A stretch of DNA of 64,000 bases from a virus (Duplodnaviria; Heunggongvirae; Uroviricota; Caudoviricetes), in the IMG/VR virus record IMGVR_UViG_2713896909_000009, positions 32,001 through 96,000 of that record, one strand, 5' to 3'. Below are positions 50,566 through 58,212 of this stretch, piece by piece. Both the position numbers and the translations under genes were made by a program. Under the pieces are notes generated by a model, which was not told the origin of the DNA, ran no database searches, and was given only the letters and a program-made list of their open reading frames with translations. The first letter of the stretch is position 1; each line of letters opens with the position of its first letter.

Positions 50566-50643
50566 TAACAACCCCGTCCGCAGGGCGGGGTGACAAGTTA
50601 CTTCTCTTACAATGAGGCTTCACAACATTGATTAGGGAAAATC

Positions 50644-51089: not shown

Positions 51090-54000
51090 ATGAATGACGT
51101 TACAGTTGTTACATCGGTCACTTACCCATCACCCGAGTCGTTGGCTCTGGTGGCTGATGTGCAATACCACGAACCATATCTGTCAGCCGCGCTAAACCGA
51201 AAATTCAGGGGAATTGTTGCCCCTGGATTTTATGCCGGTTTCTTGCCTAAGCCTGGTGGTGGGATGAACCTGTTAATCACCTCAGTGGATGGTGATAAAA
51301 CTGCTGGCGCTGCGTCAGTGGATATTGGTGAATTCTACCAGGTAACTATTCAGCACCGTAAGGATATTTCTCTTGCACTTAGTGCAGGTAAGAAATATGC
51401 AATTGTGCTGAAGGGAAGATACCTCCTTGGAGAGGATACCTATCAGGTTAATACCGCGTCACATATTCATGCGGCTGAATTTATTGCCAGAATCTATACC
51501 GATTCATATCAGTTGGGAGATGGGGAGCTACTTGTTTGTACGGTAAATATCCCTGCTGGCGTATCTGCCATTACCCAGGAGATGATTGATACATCTGAGC
51601 GTATCAACCGCACGATCGGCATTGAAATATCAGACTCTGTAACCAGCACCAGAAGTGATGTTGCGGCAAGTTCGCTGGCAGTTAAAAAAGCCTACGATCT
51701 GGCGAAAAGCAAGTATACGGCGCAGGATGCAAGCACAACGCAAAAGGGATTAGTTCAGCTCAGTAGCGAAACTAACAGCGACAGCGAAACAATGGCGGCT
51801 ACCCCTAAAGCCGTTAAGTCTGTAAAAGATCTTGCTGATACTAAAGCGCCAATAGAAAGCCCGAATCTGACAGGGAAACCAGGTGCCCCGACTGCGGCCC
51901 CTGGTACAAACAGCAATCAGATCGCAAATACAGCATTTGTTCATGCCGCTATAAACGCGCTTATCAACGGCGCCCCAGGAACACTGGATACGCTGAAAGA
52001 AATTGCGGCCGCTATCAACAACGATCCGAAGTTCGGCACGACTATCAATAATGCGCTGAATCTTAAGGCTCCTTTAGCAAACCCTGCATTCACCGGAATA
52101 CCTACCGCGCCTACAGCACCGCAGGGTACAAATAACACACAGATAGCAACGACTGCTTATGTTAGGGCGGCTATTTCCGCATTGGTCGGTTCATCTCCTG
52201 AAGCTCTGGATACTCTGAATGAGTTAGCTGCGGCGCTTGGCAATGACCCGAACTTTGCGACAACCATGACCAATGCACTGGCAGGGAAACAGCCTCTTGA
52301 TGCAACCTTAACCGCGCTCGCTGCCCTTGCGACTGGTGCAAATAAACTGCCTTATTTCACCGGTAAGGATACGGTAGCGCAGACTGATTTAACGTCAGTC
52401 GGTCGCGATATTCTGGCTAAAACAAGCACACTGGCCGTTATCCAATACCTTGGTTTAAGAGAACTTGGCACAAGCGGTGAAAAGATTCCCCTGTTGAGCA
52501 CGGCTAACACATGGAGTGCACGCCAGACTTTCAACGGCGGGATCACCGGGGCGCTGACAGGGAACGCCGACACCGCTACAAGATTGCAGACGGCGAGAAA
52601 AATTAATGATGTTCTATTTGATGGTTCAAAGGATATCACTTTAACTGCCGAAAACTTAAAGCTTGAGCAAACAGTAGAATTAGCTGCTGGTGCTTTACAG
52701 AAAAAACAGAACGGCGCAGATATTCCAGATAAGGGTGCTTTCCTGAACAATATTAACGCGGTCAGTAAAACAGATTTTGCTGCTAAGCGTGGGATGCGTT
52801 ATGTGCGAGTTAACGCTCCGGCAGGTGTAACGCCCGGAAAATATTACCCTGTTGTTGTAAAACGTAACTCGGGTTCAACAAGTGAACTTGCATCAAGGGT
52901 AGTTATATCCACTAAATCTGTTGGTGGAGCAGATCCTATGAACAACTGCGAGTTCAGCGGATTTGTGATGCCTGGCGGCTGGACTGACAGAGGGCGTTAT
53001 GCCTATGGAATGTTCTGGCAATATCACAACAATGAACGAGCAATTCATTCGATAATGATGAGTGCTAAGTCAGATGATTTGCACTCTGTATTCTATGTTG
53101 ATGGTGCTGCTTTCCCTGTCTTTGCATTTATTGAAGATGGCCTGTCAATATCCGCACCGGGTGCTGATCTCGTTGTTAATGATACGACCTATAAGTTTGG
53201 GGCAATAAACCCGGCGACAGAATGTGTCGCGGCTGACGTTATCCTTGATTTTAAAAGTGGGCGTGGTTTTTATGAATCTCATTCGTTAATTGTTAACGAT
53301 AACTTGTCGTGCAAAAAACTTTTCGCAACAGACGAAATTGTAGCGCGTGGTGGTAATCAGATTCGAATGATAGGCGGGGAATACGGTGCGTTATGGAGAA
53401 ATGACGGCGCTAAAACTTACCTGCTGCTTACCAACAAAGGTGATGTTTATGGCGAGCATAATGCATTAAGACCGTTTGCTGTTGATAACGCAACTGGTGA
53501 ACTGACTGTTGGAACCAAACTATCCGCAAGTCTGAACGGTAACGCATCGACAGCAACCAAGTTACAAAATGCGATAAATATTAATGGCGTTAAATTTGAT
53601 GGTTCCAGTGATATAAATATTAATACGTTAGTATCCCGAAACCGTGTTACAGCATTAAGTGGGAGCGCAAAGGGTACGCCAGGTATCCAAATGTATGAAG
53701 CGTACAACAATGGATATCCTTTTACTTATGGTAACGTTCTTCATCTTACTGGCGCAGCAGCAGTTGGCGAAGGAGAGTTATTTATTGGGTGGAGTGGGAC
53801 CAGCGGCGCTCATGCTCCGGCATATATTCGCTCCCGACGAGATACCACAGATGCTAACTGGTCGCCGTGGGCGCAGCTTTACACGTCAGCTCATCCTCCG
53901 GCAGAGTTTTATCCAGTCGGTGCCCCAATTCCGTGGCCTTCTGATGTAGTACCTACAGGTTATGCTATTATGCAGGGGCAAACTTTTGATAAGTCCGCAT

Positions 54001-54521
54001 ACCCAAAACTTGCAGTGGCTTATCCATCTGGTGTTATCCCTGATATGCGTGGATGGACAATCAAGGGTAAACCCGCCAGTGGGCGTGCCGTATTGTCTCA
54101 GGAACAGGATGGCATCAAGTCGCACACCCACAGTGCCAGCGCATCAAATACTGACCTCGGTACTAAAACGACCAGCTCATTTGATTACGGGACAAAAACG
54201 GTCAGCACGTTTAACCACGGTACAAAAACGACAAACAATACAGGAGCGCATACGCATACTGTCGGTGGTCGTTACGGTGGTGACTCCATCGGGGGTAAAC
54301 AACGCGTACAGGTATCAGGAACCAACCAGGTGTCAAGCTCTGCCGGAGCACATGCCCATACTGTCGATATTGGTCAGCATAACCACACCGTAGGTATTGG
54401 TGCCCATGCGCACACTGTGGCATTGGGTGCGCACGGACATACCATCACGGTTAACGCTACTGGTAATGCGGAAAACACCGTAAAAAACATTGCATATAAC
54501 TATATTGTGAGGCTTGCATGA
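51090..54521 (+). CDS. Tail fibre protein (P1 S-like) with C-terminal His-box repeats
   Basis: ORF track 51003-54521; ATG 51090 after AAGGA; conserved fibre repeats ([39 protein letters not shown]) and C-terminal GAHxHT repeats. Confidence 0.85.
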
Positions 54522-55387
54522 TTAAGTTAATTCTTTCAGCGCCAGTACATGAAATGGCTGAAGCATTTAAGCGGGTATTCGCAAATGCAGATAATGTGGA
54601 TGTTGTAGAAAAAACATTTGAAGCAATCCCGGAATTTGACTGCATGGTCAGTGCGGCAAACAGTTTCGGGCTAATGGATGGCGGCGTTGACGCTGCCATT
54701 ACTGCATTCTTTGGTACTCAGTTACAGACACGTGTTCAGAATCATATTCTTCGTGAATATCTTGGTGAGCAGCCTGTAGGCACTGCATTTGTTATTGAAA
54801 CGGGGGATAACAACCATCCCTGGCTGGTACATGCGCCAACAATGCGCGTTCCGCTGACCATTGACGGAACAGACGCTGTATATAACGCCACGTGGGCTGC
54901 TTTACTTGCCATCTTTCAGCACAATAAAAATGCAACGACAGACAGGAAAATAAAGACGGTGGTATTCCCTGCAATGGGGGCCGGATGTGGTCAGGTGCCG
55001 TTTGAAAGTGTTGCCCGGCAGATGAAGCAGGCATGGGATAACTTTAATAAAGAAACAGAAGCAATTAACTGGGAATACGCACACTCCCGCCAGTTGGCAG
55101 TATTTAATACATGCGCGTACTGCCCGGGTACTCCTGTTTGTCGTTATGCGGATATTAAATATATTGGACTTGGCGATTACCGGACGTATTGCTTACGGTC
55201 GGGGCAGGTATGCATTAATCCTGAACATCAGGTTGATGACGTGCTGACTAATAATCGTTCTCGCCCGGGGGCGCATATGCATCAGATTAATCCGGTAAAA
55301 TCCGTAGGTAATATTGCCATTGGCGCACACAGCCACGGAAGGAATATCACCATTGGTGCTCATTCCCATACCCCACATAAACAATAA
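54518..55387 (+). CDS. Macro-domain protein with Cys-rich, His-box-repeat C-terminus
   Basis: ORF track 289 aa; macro motifs [19 protein letters not shown] and [13 protein letters not shown]-terminal [21 protein letters not shown] overlaps fibre stop. Confidence 0.6.
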
Positions 55388-55405
55388 TTCTTTCTCTGAT
55401 TAGAG

Positions 55406-55990
55406 GTGAAAATGACTTTCAGAATGAGTGCTGAAGCACAAACCATTCGCGTATTTAATTATCTCGATGGTACAAATGAATTTATTGGAGAAAGTGATGC
55501 CTATATTCCACCACATACAGGGCTTCCGGCAAACAGCACAGATATTGCTCCTCCTAAGATTCCAGCTGGTTTTGCCGCTATATTCGACACAACCCGAAAC
55601 TTATGGAATTTAATAGAGGACCATAGAGGAAAAACTGTTTATCACACTGAAACAGGTGACGCTAAAACTATATTTAAATTAGGCGCTTTGCCTGAGGATG
55701 TTACGTGCATTCCTCCTGATGATGAGTATCAGAAGTGGAATGGAAATCAATGGGTTACAGACGATGAGGCGAAGCATCAAGCTCAGATAACCTATGCAAA
55801 CTCAAAGAAAAATGAGTTGTTAAAGCACGCAAGCGTAGAGATAGCGATCTTACAAGATGCTGTTGATTTATGTATTGCAACAGATGAAGAGAAAGTTTTA
55901 TTAAATGAATGGAAAAAATACAGAGTGCTTGTAAATAGGTTAAATGAAGATGACATCATTCAAATGAAAGTCCCTGAAATACCAGTTTGA
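55406..55990 (+). CDS. Tail fibre assembly protein (Tfa / P1 U-like)
   Basis: ORF track 194 aa; C-terminal ATDEEKVLLNEWKKYRVLVNRL typical of Tfa chaperones. Confidence 0.75.
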   Translation: MKMTFRMSAEAQTIRVFNYLDGTNEFIGESDAYIPPHTGLPANSTDIAPPKIPAGFAAIFDTTRNLWNLIEDHRGKTVYHTETGDAKTIFKLGALPEDVTCIPPDDEYQKWNGNQWVTDDEAKHQAQITYANSKKNELLKHASVEIAILQDAVDLCIATDEEKVLLNEWKKYRVLVNRLNEDDIIQMKVPEIPV

Positions 55991-56003
55991 TTTATATATT
56001 AAT

Positions 56004-56044
56004 AAGCCACTGTTGACAGGACTGTTTTACAGTGGCTTGTTTTA
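56004..56044. terminator. Bidirectional terminator hairpin between convergent genes
   Basis: AAGCCACTG...CAGTGGCTT with T-run on plus side. Confidence 0.55.
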
Positions 56045-57193
56045 TTATCCAAACCAATTTTCTAGAACATTTTCAAATTTATGGGTAACTTGCCACCATA
56101 AATAGTTCTCTAATACATATTTCTTTCCGTTATTTGCAATTTGTTCTAATTTTTCGGAGTGTAATGTTTCATATATATCACTAGCTAAACTTTCTGGCAA
56201 CATTGGTTCATTTATATGAAATCCTGTATGGTTATTTTTTACAAATTCAACCATTCCACCTCGAGTGCTAACTAAAACGGGTTTTCCTGCCCCCATAGCT
56301 TCTATAGCAACCATGCAGAACGGTTCTTGAAACTGAGATGGGATTACAACTAGATCGGCTATAGGATAGTAACGGTACATATCATCTGGTTTTACCCCGC
56401 CAACAAGATGACAACGCGAACCAATAGTTCCAGCAAGTTCCCTTACTTGTTTTTGATATGCAGCTTTTTCTCCTTTATCTTTATTATTGTAGTCACCAAC
56501 AACTACAAGTTCTATATTGTCACATGATTTTATCAATTTTTTAAACGCTTGTAATAGTAAAACAGTCCCTTTTTCAGGGGAGATCCTTCCCGCATAAAAG
56601 ATAACTTTTTTCTCAGAGGGAATGCCTAAATCTTGTTTTGTTAGCGGGGGTAGCCCTTTATCTAGATTGTGTGGTTCTGTACCATTAGGAACTATACAAA
56701 TTTCAGCGTCAGGAAGATGTTTTTCATAAAAATCCTTTAAATACTGACTTGGAACAAGCATTTTCACATTGCTATCTAGCCCTTTCGGTGTAAAGGCATT
56801 ATGCATATGCATTATCATTTTTGCGTCAGGAGCTTTCTCTCTAATTTGACGATAAAGTTTCATGCTGTTATGAACAATAATAATGCTATCGTTTGTGATA
56901 TTGAAATCTTTAGCAATGTTTAACACTCGTTGTGAATATGGAATAGGATCTATTCTGCTCCATTTTTGAAATATCCGTTTATAAAGACGGCTAAACCCTA
57001 TTCTATGGATAGAGCATCGCTCATTAACAATATCTTTTTCTGAGAAACCATCCTCTCGAATGCATGCTATACGATTTGGTATTCTTGTTCTCTTTGCGAC
57101 TTGATATATCCAAGTTTCAACAGCTGCTGCGCCACGAGGTGGTATTGAAAATATTGGTGTAACTGTAAATATTAATTTGTCAATCATGAGCAA
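56045..57193 (-). CDS. GT1-family (GT-B, GT4-like) glycosyltransferase, AT-rich cargo
   Basis: ORF track 382 aa; EAMGAGKPVLVSTRGG and PSQFQEPFCMVAIEA signature region. Confidence 0.8.
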   Translation of the reverse strand: MLMIDKLIFTVTPIFSIPPRGAAAVETWIYQVAKRTRIPNRIACIREDGFSEKDIVNERCSIHRIGFSRLYKRIFQKWSRIDPIPYSQRVLNIAKDFNITNDSIIIVHNSMKLYRQIREKAPDAKMIMHMHNAFTPKGLDSNVKMLVPSQYLKDFYEKHLPDAEICIVPNGTEPHNLDKGLPPLTKQDLGIPSEKKVIFYAGRISPEKGTVLLLQAFKKLIKSCDNIELVVVGDYNNKDKGEKAAYQKQVRELAGTIGSRCHLVGGVKPDDMYRYYPIADLVVIPSQFQEPFCMVAIEAMGAGKPVLVSTRGGMVEFVKNNHTGFHINEPMLPESLASDIYETLHSEKLEQIANNGKKYVLENYLWWQVTHKFENVLENWFG

Positions 57194-57731
57194 CTATCCT
57201 CTTATAATCTTTTTCCTTTAAATGTTTTTTTAGGGTTGCGGGAGAGCCCGCATACATTGTATTAGCAGGAACATCAGTATTTACAACGCTATTTGCAGCT
57301 ATAACACTATTGTCTCCTATTTTTACACCTGGTAGCACAGTTGTATTTGCCCCAATCCAAACATTACGGCCTATTTTTATTGGAGCGCAAATTGTTTCTT
57401 TGGGACGTTTGCTTGGTGTTAGTGGATGCGTGACAGTTGTTAATACAACGTTGGGGCCAATGGCAGAGTTACATCCAATATCTATTGTTTTTGCATCGAG
57501 AAAAACACAATTTGCGTTAATGAAGACCTTTTTATCAATAATTATATTGCCATTCTCAAAATAAAATGGAGCTGTTATTGTTGAGTCTTCACTTACTTTA
57601 ACTCCTGTTTTTTTTAATGTGATTAATTTTTTTCTTTTTGAGATCAAGGTATAATTAAATATATGTCTTGCTTTCTTTGCTTTCTTTTTTTGAAAAATTA
57701 TATAGAAATAATATGTTAGCAAATCAAACAT
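57180..57731 (-). CDS. Hexapeptide-repeat acetyltransferase (left-handed beta-helix)
   Basis: ORF track 183 aa; IGRNVWIGANTTVLPGVKIGDNSVIAANSVV. Confidence 0.8.
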   Translation of the reverse strand: MFDLLTYYFYIIFQKKKAKKARHIFNYTLISKRKKLITLKKTGVKVSEDSTITAPFYFENGNIIIDKKVFINANCVFLDAKTIDIGCNSAIGPNVVLTTVTHPLTPSKRPKETICAPIKIGRNVWIGANTTVLPGVKIGDNSVIAANSVVNTDVPANTMYAGSPATLKKHLKEKDYKRIVAHD

Positions 57732-57755
57732 TGTTGTTTTACTTCCATTTAAAAT

Positions 57756-58022
57756 TTAACTATCAAATGTGGCTCCTATTTCTCGCATTTTGTTAAGTAT
57801 GATGTTTATTTCATTGCTACCGAGAGAAGTTTGGGCAGCTATGAAAAAAAGTATGTGCAATGACATAGATCTGTTATTTTCTTTGTTTATATATTTTCTC
57901 CACTGGCTATCGCTGCTGACCCCGGCTAGTTCTGCCATTTGATTCCCTGTATACCCAAGCGTTTCTTTGAATTGACGCAAATCTTGTGATTTGGGGGGGG
58001 TGTAGTTGTTTATTAACCTCAT
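57756..58022 (-). CDS. Small HTH (XRE-like) protein
   Basis: ORF track 57756-58085; start placed at ATG 58022; LRQFKETLGYTGNQMAELAGV. Confidence 0.4.
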   Translation of the reverse strand: MRLINNYTPPKSQDLRQFKETLGYTGNQMAELAGVSSDSQWRKYINKENNRSMSLHILFFIAAQTSLGSNEINIILNKMREIGATFDS

Positions 58023-58152
58023 ATTAAACCCATTATTGGTAAGCTTTCGTTGGTGTAATGGTAGCACCAATGGGGCTGCTGTCAAGCGTCTTTTCTTTAT
58101 AAATATAGGGAGCCATCAAAATCTGACATCAATTATCTATCGAAATATTTTG

Positions 58153-58170
58153 AATGACTGGTGAGAAGTT
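58153..58170 (+). promoter_or_regulatory. Putative late promoter element (degenerate copy) upstream of lysis genes
   Basis: AATGACTGGTGAGAAGTT about 40 nt upstream of holin GTG. Confidence 0.3.
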
Positions 58171-58212
58171 ACTTTGCATACCATTACCTCCTGACAACGT
58201 AGGAGGGAACTT

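Follow-up and report, generated by a model that had tools for sequence, protein, structure and literature searches.

The 64,000-nucleotide stretch of DNA analysed here (positions 32,001 to 96,000 of IMG/VR record IMGVR_UViG_2713896909_000009, hereafter the window) was identified as a P1-like phage-plasmid, ~100% identical to Escherichia albertii plasmid p2RM9973 (NZ_CP043272.1). Between the tail-fibre genes and lydA it carries three minus-strand genes that form a single operon, encoding a small helix-turn-helix (HTH) protein, an acetyltransferase and a glycosyltransferase. We consider it moderately likely that this operon modifies the core of the host lipopolysaccharide (LPS) and is expressed from the prophage, i.e., that it is a lysogenic-conversion module.

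The locus

On the plus strand the operon is preceded, in this order, by R, the tail-fibre gene S (to 54521), a gene for a macro-domain protein and the gene for a Caudo_TAP fibre chaperone, and the three operon genes converge on the latter. The chaperone gene ends at 55990 and the glycosyltransferase gene at 56045, with a hairpin in between. Past 58153 follows P1 backbone, with the late promoter LPdar and then lydA, lydB and the darA operon. The elements of the operon are:

56045-57187, minus strand: WaaK/RfaK-family LPS outer-core glycosyltransferase, 380 amino acids (aa) (NF012028, Glycos_transf_1)
57180-57731, minus strand: hexapeptide-repeat sugar O-acetyltransferase of the LacA/Maa type, 183 aa (Hexapep, LacA structure match)
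57756-58022, minus strand: leading gene of the operon, for a small HTH regulator of the XRE type with 88 aa (starts of homologues; PHROG 20491, E 9e-25)
57993-58000, minus strand: C8 homopolymer in codons 8-10 of the HTH gene, a possible slippage site (comparison of copies)
58058-58085, minus strand: sigma-70-type operon promoter, with TTGACA at 58085-58080, a 16-nt spacer and a TG-extended TACCAT at 58063-58058
58063-58077, minus strand: 15-nt near-palindrome AGCCCCATTGGTGCT within the spacer of this promoter, where the HTH protein may have its operator (recurrence in distant loci)

The open reading frames (ORFs) listed for the module in the first-pass annotation (56045-57193, 57180-57731 and 57756-58085) were all present, and the identities given to them (HTH, hexapeptide acetyltransferase, group-1 glycosyltransferase) were right, apart from corrections to starts and to a class label. 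The three genes had been described as low in GC, and in a comparison along the window the module has a GC content of 0.35, lower than any other 2-kb stretch of the 64 kb (mean 0.465, standard deviation 0.032, in 2-kb windows). The region from 55900 to 58200 is 100% identical to E. albertii plasmids (e.g., p2RM9973) and 98-99% identical to a few plasmids of Escherichia coli and Escherichia fergusonii.

The glycosyltransferase and the acetyltransferase

The glycosyltransferase most likely starts at the ATG at 57187, which gives a protein of 380 aa. It matches the NCBIfam model NF012028, "lipopolysaccharide N-acetylglucosaminyltransferase", with 657.9 bits (cut-off 618), its residues 3-381 covering positions 1-379 of the 380 in the model, as well as Pfam Glycos_transf_1 (E 3.5e-37). 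The EX7E motif (EPFCMVAIE, residues 288-296), a signature of retaining GT-B enzymes of CAZy family GT4, is intact. The label "GT1" used in the first-pass annotation is correct for the Pfam group 1 but not for the CAZy family, which is GT4. The protein is 72% identical to an accessory copy in Salmonella, 66-68% to most other Salmonella WaaK proteins and 60% to the E. coli copy. It shares with the chromosomal WaaK (RfaK) of Salmonella enterica and of the E. coli R2 core its length of 380 aa, the EX7E motif and a score above the family cut-off. It differs from them in that its gene shares an operon with those for an acetyltransferase and an HTH regulator, and lies outside the chromosomal waa (rfa) locus, on a P1-like phage-plasmid behind a fibre chaperone gene, where it is a second copy in its host. 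The activity predicted from the family is transfer of N-acetylglucosamine (GlcNAc) in alpha-1,2 linkage to the outer-core glucose; members of the WaaK family annotated as glucosyltransferases also exist.

The waa locus of the E. albertii type strain is Salmonella-like and contains waaB, waaI, a waaJ-like gene, waaY, waaZ, waaK and waaL. The chromosomal waaK, located between waaZ and waaL, is only ~55% identical to the plasmid gene, which is therefore a divergent second copy that was not acquired from the current host. No credible WaaK homologue was found by tblastn in deposited phages (50,697 records), where the strong matches consisted only of mislabelled Salmonella chromosomal contigs and a 1.7-kb fragment, and no phage- or plasmid-borne waaK was found in the literature.

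The protein also matches PF20706, "GT4-conflict", with 48.8 bits against a cut-off of 26. This could be taken to mean that it belongs to an anti-phage conflict system and acts on a target other than LPS, e.g., invading DNA or protein. We find this hardly credible, as the matches to Glycos_transf_1 and NF012028 are far stronger and as all 120 homologues among the matches listed, most of them named WaaK, share PF20706. The match was set aside as a clue to defence, since it reflects a generic resemblance among GT4 enzymes.

The acetyltransferase gene starts 24 nt past the HTH gene and overlaps the start of the glycosyltransferase gene by 8 nt, and the two enzymes are probably translationally coupled. 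The acetyltransferase matches Pfam Hexapep (E 7e-15), and among solved structures E. coli LacA (1kqa, E 5e-28) is the closest in sequence. The best NCBIfam matches, to Maa (105 bits, cut-off 314) and LacA (103.6 bits, cut-off 347), are far below the equivalog cut-offs, and it can therefore be classed as a sugar O-acetyltransferase without an assigned substrate. It is predicted to be a soluble left-handed beta-helix enzyme that is neither Maa nor LacA proper.

The regulator and its promoter

The first-pass annotation had started the HTH gene at the TTG at 58085. This TTG is part of the TTGACA of the -35 box, and the true start is the ATG at 58022 (MRLI...), because the homologues from Salmonella, Serratia and Burkholderia all begin there. 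Pfam gives only a sub-threshold match to HTH_31 (E 0.008, 16.9 bits against a cut-off of 27), and the homologues likewise carry no precomputed Pfam domain. The AlphaFold (AF2) model has five helices and a predicted local distance difference test (pLDDT) score of 84.6. In a Foldseek search with the model all 50 matches listed are XRE-type or other HTH DNA-binding proteins, with probabilities of 0.85-1.00 for all but one of them and weak E-values of 0.02-0.2; they include SinR, CapH, Aca1, Aca10, the HTH domain of AcrIF24, restriction-modification (R-M) controller proteins and HigA. An XRE-type DNA-binding fold is predicted on the basis of this model.

The promoter matches the sigma-70 consensus at 10 of 12 positions in addition to its TG extension. 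The near-palindrome in its spacer recurs between the -35 and -10 boxes of at least five distant loci with an HTH homologue (L057, L060, L062, L063, L064), as the reverse complement AGCACCAATGGGGCT or near variants of it. That it keeps this position whichever way it is oriented points to a symmetric site of protein binding, and by analogy with known small regulators the HTH protein is the candidate to bind it. The Aca proteins and the controller (C) proteins of R-M systems are small XRE-fold proteins that are encoded in the operon they control and bind palindromes in its promoter. In structure they come closest to the HTH model, and a palindrome in the promoter spacer is found in the window too. 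They show no significant sequence similarity to the HTH protein, the best PDB sequence having an E-value of 0.02. We propose that the HTH protein most likely autoregulates the operon through the spacer palindrome in a similar manner.

No operator for the P1 C1 repressor was found within 15 kb of the operon, the 10 matches in the window all being no nearer than 40805. This distance speaks against control of the operon by C1 and fits expression in the lysogen. The operon does not have a P1 late promoter either.

A GC-rich palindrome is found upstream of most HTH homologues and was considered as a shared operator. Its stem varies between taxa and in many loci it is a hairpin followed by a T-run, so that it was rejected as an operator and regarded as a terminator. 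The version embedded in a promoter, which is the one in the window, is alone kept as a candidate operator. About half of 82 HTH upstream regions surveyed contain an ORF for a small transmembrane (TM) protein followed by a GC-rich hairpin and a T-run (38 by a strict pattern, more by eye). In many of these loci the HTH gene starts 10-15 nt after a strong terminator hairpin (AAGCCCCnnnnGGGGCTTTTT) that closes the TM-protein ORF (L029-L059 and others; L010, 7465-7658; L024, 3790-4000); the HTH gene and its cargo may be transcribed there by read-through or by regulated termination. Neither the small ORF nor the terminator is present upstream of the HTH gene in the window, where the distance from the promoter to the P1 backbone is 67 nt only.

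The C8 tract has a length of eight in 12 of 14 copies of the gene and of seven, giving a frameshift, in the other two (p2RM10705 and pZ1323PEC0001-2), for which either slip-strand switching of the regulator or sequencing error could be the reason. When the HTH genes of E. albertii and E. coli are compared (57759-58022 and L023, 7858-8121), they show five amino acid changes and no synonymous ones (dN 0.024, dS 0, nonsynonymous and synonymous changes per site), numbers which are too small to interpret. The ratio dN/dS for the glycosyltransferase and acetyltransferase genes is 0.11-0.22 in the same comparison.

Cargo of the HTH family

The genes next to HTH homologues were surveyed in 80 loci from IMG/VR, a downstream gene being counted if it encodes 140 aa or more and follows within 200 nt on the same strand. 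Such a gene was found in 37 of them, and in 14 cases it encodes an Acyl_transf_3 protein, in 11 a hexapeptide acetyltransferase and in one each a GT25 (LPS), a GDSL and a RelA_SpoT protein. The 149 convergent ORFs beyond the cargo fall, as far as the top PHROG families are concerned, almost entirely into tail-fibre and fibre-assembly families. Members of the HTH family outside the window are paired with LPS or O-antigen acetylases, a WaaZ-like enzyme and a GT25 enzyme, adjoining tail-fibre genes. Serratia phage BZS1 has an HTH protein (58.6% identical) followed by an OafA/YrhL O-acetylase, and Burkholderia phage phiE131 has one (44% identical) followed by an SGNH hydrolase; in both the genes converge on fibre genes. 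Further arrangements are:

Citrobacter koseri: TM protein, HTH, Acyl_transf_3, then a convergent Caudo_TAP chaperone
Citrobacter braakii (L127, 4001-5062): HTH, WaaZ-like Kdo (Kdo III) transferase, then convergent Caudo_TAP remnants
Yersinia enterocolitica: TM protein, HTH, Acyl_transf_3, SASA
Pluralibacter: TM protein, HTH, no cargo, then a convergent tail fibre
Salmonella, arizonae and others (L010-L012, 7465-9143; L107): 51-aa TM protein, HTH (63% identity), WaaK paralogue (72% identity), in an islet between umuDC and an endonuclease gene/lpxR region

The Salmonella islet contains no acetyltransferase gene, has no adjacent phage genes and is found in the type strain of subsp. arizonae, among others; strains that have it would carry two WaaK-type enzymes. 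In C. braakii, too, the cargo of this HTH family is an LPS-core enzyme, the WaaZ-like one, which makes a second such case.

In the p24-p26 cluster of BZS1, which consists of a small TM protein, an HTH protein and an Oac-like acetyltransferase opposite the tail genes, the acetyltransferase was described as always adjacent and protection against superinfection was proposed (Bujak et al., PMC7556043). The operon in the window resembles this cluster in that the HTH gene is located directly upstream of a gene for a glycan-modifying enzyme and that both converge on fibre genes. It differs in its cargo, a soluble hexapeptide acetyltransferase and a WaaK-family glycosyltransferase rather than a membrane Acyl_transf_3 protein. 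It also lacks the small TM gene and the terminator, and its HTH gene has a promoter of its own. Judged from this comparison the operon belongs to the HTH-led clusters of the BZS1 type, with new cargo.

The P1 inversion-switch slot and the fibre-tip cassette

The features that flank the operon are:

52440-52463, plus strand: relic cixR site inside S, 24 nt identical to P1 cixR, in single copy
53707-54521, plus strand: 3' end of S, encoding the receptor-binding tip, left end of the cassette (blastn against a P2-like phage-plasmid)
54518-55387, plus strand: gene for a macro-domain protein, between fibre and chaperone (Pfam Macro, E 2e-19; PHROG 2613, E 2e-136)
55406-55990, plus strand: gene for a tail-fibre assembly chaperone, replacing P1 U and belonging to the cassette (Pfam Caudo_TAP, E 5e-32)
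56001-56041, both strands: terminator-like hairpin between the convergent chaperone and glycosyltransferase genes (folding compared with shuffles)
58160-58184, plus strand: P1 late promoter LPdar, right boundary of the replaced region (P1 annotation; resumption of homology at 58153), a repeat of the late promoter LPs at 50589-50613 (repeat family D4)

Homology to P1 extends to position 52627 within S, 164 nt beyond the cixR crossover, and resumes at 58153, which corresponds to P1 position 31244. The P1 annotation has in this interval the variable part of S, U, U', Sv', cixL, cin and lydC, and the gap in homology indicates that Sv, U, U', Sv', cin and lydC of P1 have been replaced in the window. 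The first-pass annotation had assigned the three genes to the place of the invertible C-segment, and comparison with the S-U-cin region of P1 agrees, as the slot between S and lydA is the same. It had noted no serine recombinase, and indeed no homologue of Cin was found anywhere in the window (tblastn of P1 Cin gave a best E-value of 7.5), nor any of LydC or U'. It had also noted no cix-like inverted repeats. This is correct for a second or inverted copy, of which there is none in the window at up to three mismatches, a search for repeats having given only short chance inverted repeats, but the intact cixR in S was overlooked. That site is the sole cix match in the window, with none expected by chance. 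The relic and the pattern of P1 homology argue that the lineage descends from an ancestor with a C-segment and has exchanged the whole host-range switch for one new fibre tip and the genes studied here. The slot and cixR are what the window has in common with the Cin/C-segment switch of P1; cin, the second cix site and the alternative set of fibre genes are missing from it, and it has a single fibre tip and surface-modifying enzymes instead. A Cin/Gin/Pin-type invertase supplied in trans would meet a single cix site in S, as cixL is gone.

The hairpin behind the operon had been called a bidirectional terminator. It is real, with a folding energy of -21.2 kcal/mol on the plus strand (z -5.0) and -15.9 kcal/mol on the minus strand (z -4.7), and none of 200 shuffles folded as well. 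Its bidirectional nature is half supported, since a clear U-run is present on the plus strand only. A scan with a terminator consensus missed the hairpin because its loop is long. Rfam gave no structured RNA between 55300 and 58400, the best match being a sub-threshold IS009 (24 bits against a gathering score of 117).

The module had been interpreted as acquired cargo, and its distribution agrees with this. It was found in just 13 of 472 P1-like plasmids of PLSDB (the 472 being those that match any part of the query, nearly all by the P1-backbone edge only) and in no deposited phage genome. Likewise, 463 complete E. coli genomes match the query and 9-10 of them carry the module. P1 itself, P7, SJ46, RCS47 and the other deposited punaviruses match the lydA side only.

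The enzyme genes are not an insertion of their own, and they form the tail end of a 4-kb cassette together with the fibre tip, the macro gene and the chaperone gene. The segment from 53707 to 57731, which extends from the last 270 codons of S through the genes for the macro protein, the chaperone and the glycosyltransferase to the start codon of the acetyltransferase gene, is 85% identical by blastn over 4,044 nt to pEA32_4, a P2-like phage-plasmid of 49.5 kb from E. albertii; two assembled contigs of this type match as well. The amino acid identity is 92% for the glycosyltransferase, 92% for the macro protein, 87% for the chaperone and 67% for the acetyltransferase. Comparison of the P1-like with the P2-like copies gives a dN/dS of 0.066 for the glycosyltransferase (dS 0.60) and of 0.115 for the acetyltransferase (dS 2.2), and the two enzymes have therefore been under purifying selection while mobile.

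The full allele of fibre tip, macro gene and chaperone gene was found in 14 plasmids and nine E. coli genomes, the same records that hold most of the enzyme-gene query. A version that is 84% identical and comprises the fibre tip, the macro gene and the N-terminal part of the chaperone, stopping in the middle of the chaperone gene, was counted in 1,676 complete E. coli genomes out of 5,426, where it usually sits in a chromosomal prophage; no more than 9-10 of the 1,676 carry the enzymes. The fibre family therefore does not need the enzymes, which are optional cargo attached behind one chaperone allele.

This distribution also bears on the proposal, made as an option in the first-pass annotation, that the two enzymes modify the adjacent tail fibre or another virion protein. 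The genes lie directly behind those for the fibre and its chaperone and move together with them, as such a role would predict. We nevertheless regard it as very improbable, as the many fibres of this family without the enzymes argue against it, and so do the full-length match of the glycosyltransferase to an LPS-core enzyme family and the orientation of the operon, which is antisense to the late operon and has a sigma-70-type promoter instead of a P1 late promoter. In addition, among the enzymes that the HTH family drives elsewhere are membrane O-acetylases of the Oac/OafA type, whose substrates are envelope glycans.

Proposed lysogenic conversion of the LPS core

Modification of the LPS is favoured because the glycosyltransferase is a full-length member of the WaaK family, because the operon has its own sigma-70-type promoter against the late genes and because the HTH family has envelope-modifying cargo in other loci. 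Lysogenic conversion of LPS was one of the options given in the first-pass annotation; homology and the recurrent architecture speak for it, with the specification that the target is probably the LPS core and not polysaccharide in general. The promoter would drive the HTH, acetyltransferase and glycosyltransferase genes, in this order, against the direction of the late genes. At the cytoplasmic face of the membrane the glycosyltransferase would add a hexose to an outer-core glucose of lipid A-core, judged by its family an alpha-1,2-linked GlcNAc, the acetyltransferase would O-acetylate a terminal sugar, and the lysogen would display an altered LPS core. As the enzymes travel with one fibre tip and its chaperone, the likeliest benefit would be masking of the receptor, or of access to it, for this fibre or for competing phages that bind the LPS core. 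Masking would provide superinfection exclusion and reduce the loss of progeny on debris. When rfaK is deleted, the phage susceptibility of Salmonella changes (PMC10949491).

Classical seroconversion modules, i.e., GtrABC of P22 and of SfII, SfV and SfX, Oac of Sf6 and the O-acetylases of phiV10 and D3, target the O-antigen, mostly at the periplasmic face, by way of Gtr flippase systems or membrane acyltransferases. They resemble the role predicted for the operon in the window in that prophage enzymes alter the LPS and block adsorption of related phages and of the phage itself, and they too are often oriented against structural genes. The difference is that the glycosyltransferase of the window would, by its family, act on the core and at the cytoplasmic face. 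None of the three proteins matched GtrA, GtrB, GtrC or Acyl_transf_3 in Pfam, and neither enzyme did so in NCBIfam.

Several observations weigh against this interpretation. The host E. albertii already has a waaK of its own, so that for the additional enzyme to have an effect its acceptor, donor or timing has to be different. The cassette of the P2-like phage-plasmid has no HTH gene and its acetyltransferase is less similar than the other products, so that the three genes are not an indivisible unit. The hairpin behind the operon has no U-run on the operon strand. In E. albertii pEA22_2 the 3' part of the acetyltransferase gene is interrupted by the insertion sequence (IS) ISKpn26 of the IS5 family (L016, 7435-8415), in E. 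coli GmM062 the glycosyltransferase gene is truncated by IS1, and four copies have single-base frameshifts, all at homopolymers of long-read assemblies. Finally, that it is the receptor of the phage's own fibre which is masked is a conjecture.

The IS insertions and frameshifts also raise the question of whether the genes are a decaying passenger, brought along by the exchange of the fibre tip, without current function and in the process of being lost. The rarity of the module among P1-like plasmids would be consistent with this, as would the neighbouring macro gene, which according to the RefSeq annotation of the E. coli copies read carries a frameshift or an internal stop. The opposite is suggested by the low dN/dS between the two backbones (0.07-0.12 over a dS of 0.6-2.2), by ORFs that are intact in 9-10 of 15 P1-type copies examined (the window included) in E. 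albertii, E. coli and E. fergusonii, and by the conservation of promoter and palindrome. The frameshifts are an unreliable sign of decay, since all are single-base indels in homopolymers, which may be sequencing errors. On balance we think decay improbable. ISKpn26 has inserted independently at two different sites of the module, the second being in E. coli E2 p1 (L018, 6311-7291), where it lies between the chaperone and glycosyltransferase genes and has replaced the last residues of the glycosyltransferase.

Another explanation accepts the same remodelling of the LPS core but places the benefit with the host, in the site or efficiency of O-antigen ligation, in resistance to serum or bile, or in immune evasion in the avian or mammalian gut. 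According to the passages of PMC13293308 that cite Heinrichs (1998), the outer core receives its terminal alpha-1,2-GlcNAc branch from WaaK, the O-antigen ligase depends on this branch, and ligation of the O-antigen in Salmonella and to the E. coli R2 core requires the WaaK product. Avian clusters of E. albertii are enriched for P1-like phage-plasmids (bioRxiv 10.1101/2025.09.12.675607), and the islet with an HTH gene and a WaaK paralogue in Salmonella chromosomes, which has no phage genes next to it, also points in this direction. On the other hand the tight linkage of the enzymes to one allele of fibre tip and chaperone in two unrelated phage-plasmid backbones, and the general convergence of the HTH-cargo unit on tail-fibre genes, suggest a logic of phage receptors. 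We regard a host benefit as the less probable explanation, though one to be kept in mind; it has its biochemistry in common with phage exclusion and the two are not separable from these data.

If LPS-core conversion that excludes phages is indeed the function, it is tempting to speculate further that the cassette is a portable unit in which a receptor-binding tip is combined with enzymes masking that receptor, by remodelling of the LPS core used by the tip or by rival phages, so that a new host range and the matching self-exclusion are acquired at once through recombination. In the P1 lineage this unit would have replaced the Cin switch, and it would contain the first described phage-borne LPS outer-core glycosyltransferase. 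The 88-aa HTH protein would then represent a widespread family of controllers for lysogenic-conversion cargo behind tail-fibre genes, in phages of Enterobacterales and Burkholderiales. We propose this wider scheme as a possibility that we hold to be somewhat doubtful.

Lysogenic conversion as such is known. What is new here is the core as probable target, the use of a copied waa enzyme, its linkage to a mobile fibre-tip cassette, its location in the slot of the P1 inversion switch and the leading gene, which belongs to a widespread HTH family. Phage-mediated LPS conversion is known mainly for the O-antigen and would, if the proposed function is confirmed, be extended to the outer core by means of a copied housekeeping enzyme. 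The P1 lineage would in that case have given up the alternation of host range by Cin for one fibre and a remodelled surface. Phage-plasmids would also be a route by which waa-type genes pass between Escherichia and Salmonella lineages; a survey of the waa locus found no remnants of phages, IS elements or transposons that could explain horizontal transfer (PMC8715443). P1-like phage-plasmids were reported in 41% of UK E. albertii isolates (bioRxiv 10.1101/2025.09.12.675607), and such elements have an influence on phage susceptibility, on typing and possibly on display of the O-antigen. The 88-aa HTH family could serve as a marker of lysogenic-conversion cargo in prophages.

The macro gene and the fibre end

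The macro gene overlaps the stop codon of the fibre gene. The C-terminus of its product has His-x-His repeats (GAHSHG...GAHSHT) that resemble the end of the fibre, where short direct repeats in S (54150-54420, plus strand) encode His-x-His motifs and the protein ends in the common ...YNYIVRLA. No paper on a macro-domain gene in a fibre locus was found in the literature; the arrangement of fibre tip, macro gene and chaperone gene is also present in Gifsy-1, SEN4/SEN5 and phage Chuche. In RefSeq the macro gene is annotated as frameshifted in the four E. coli P1-like copies read, three of which also have an internal stop. The plasmid of E. coli GmM062 (NZ_JCANKX010000003.1; L007, 1-6000) has on the fibre side genes for a large methyltransferase-domain protein, two glycosyltransferases, an epimerase/dehydratase and an acyltransferase, and an ars operon after lydB.

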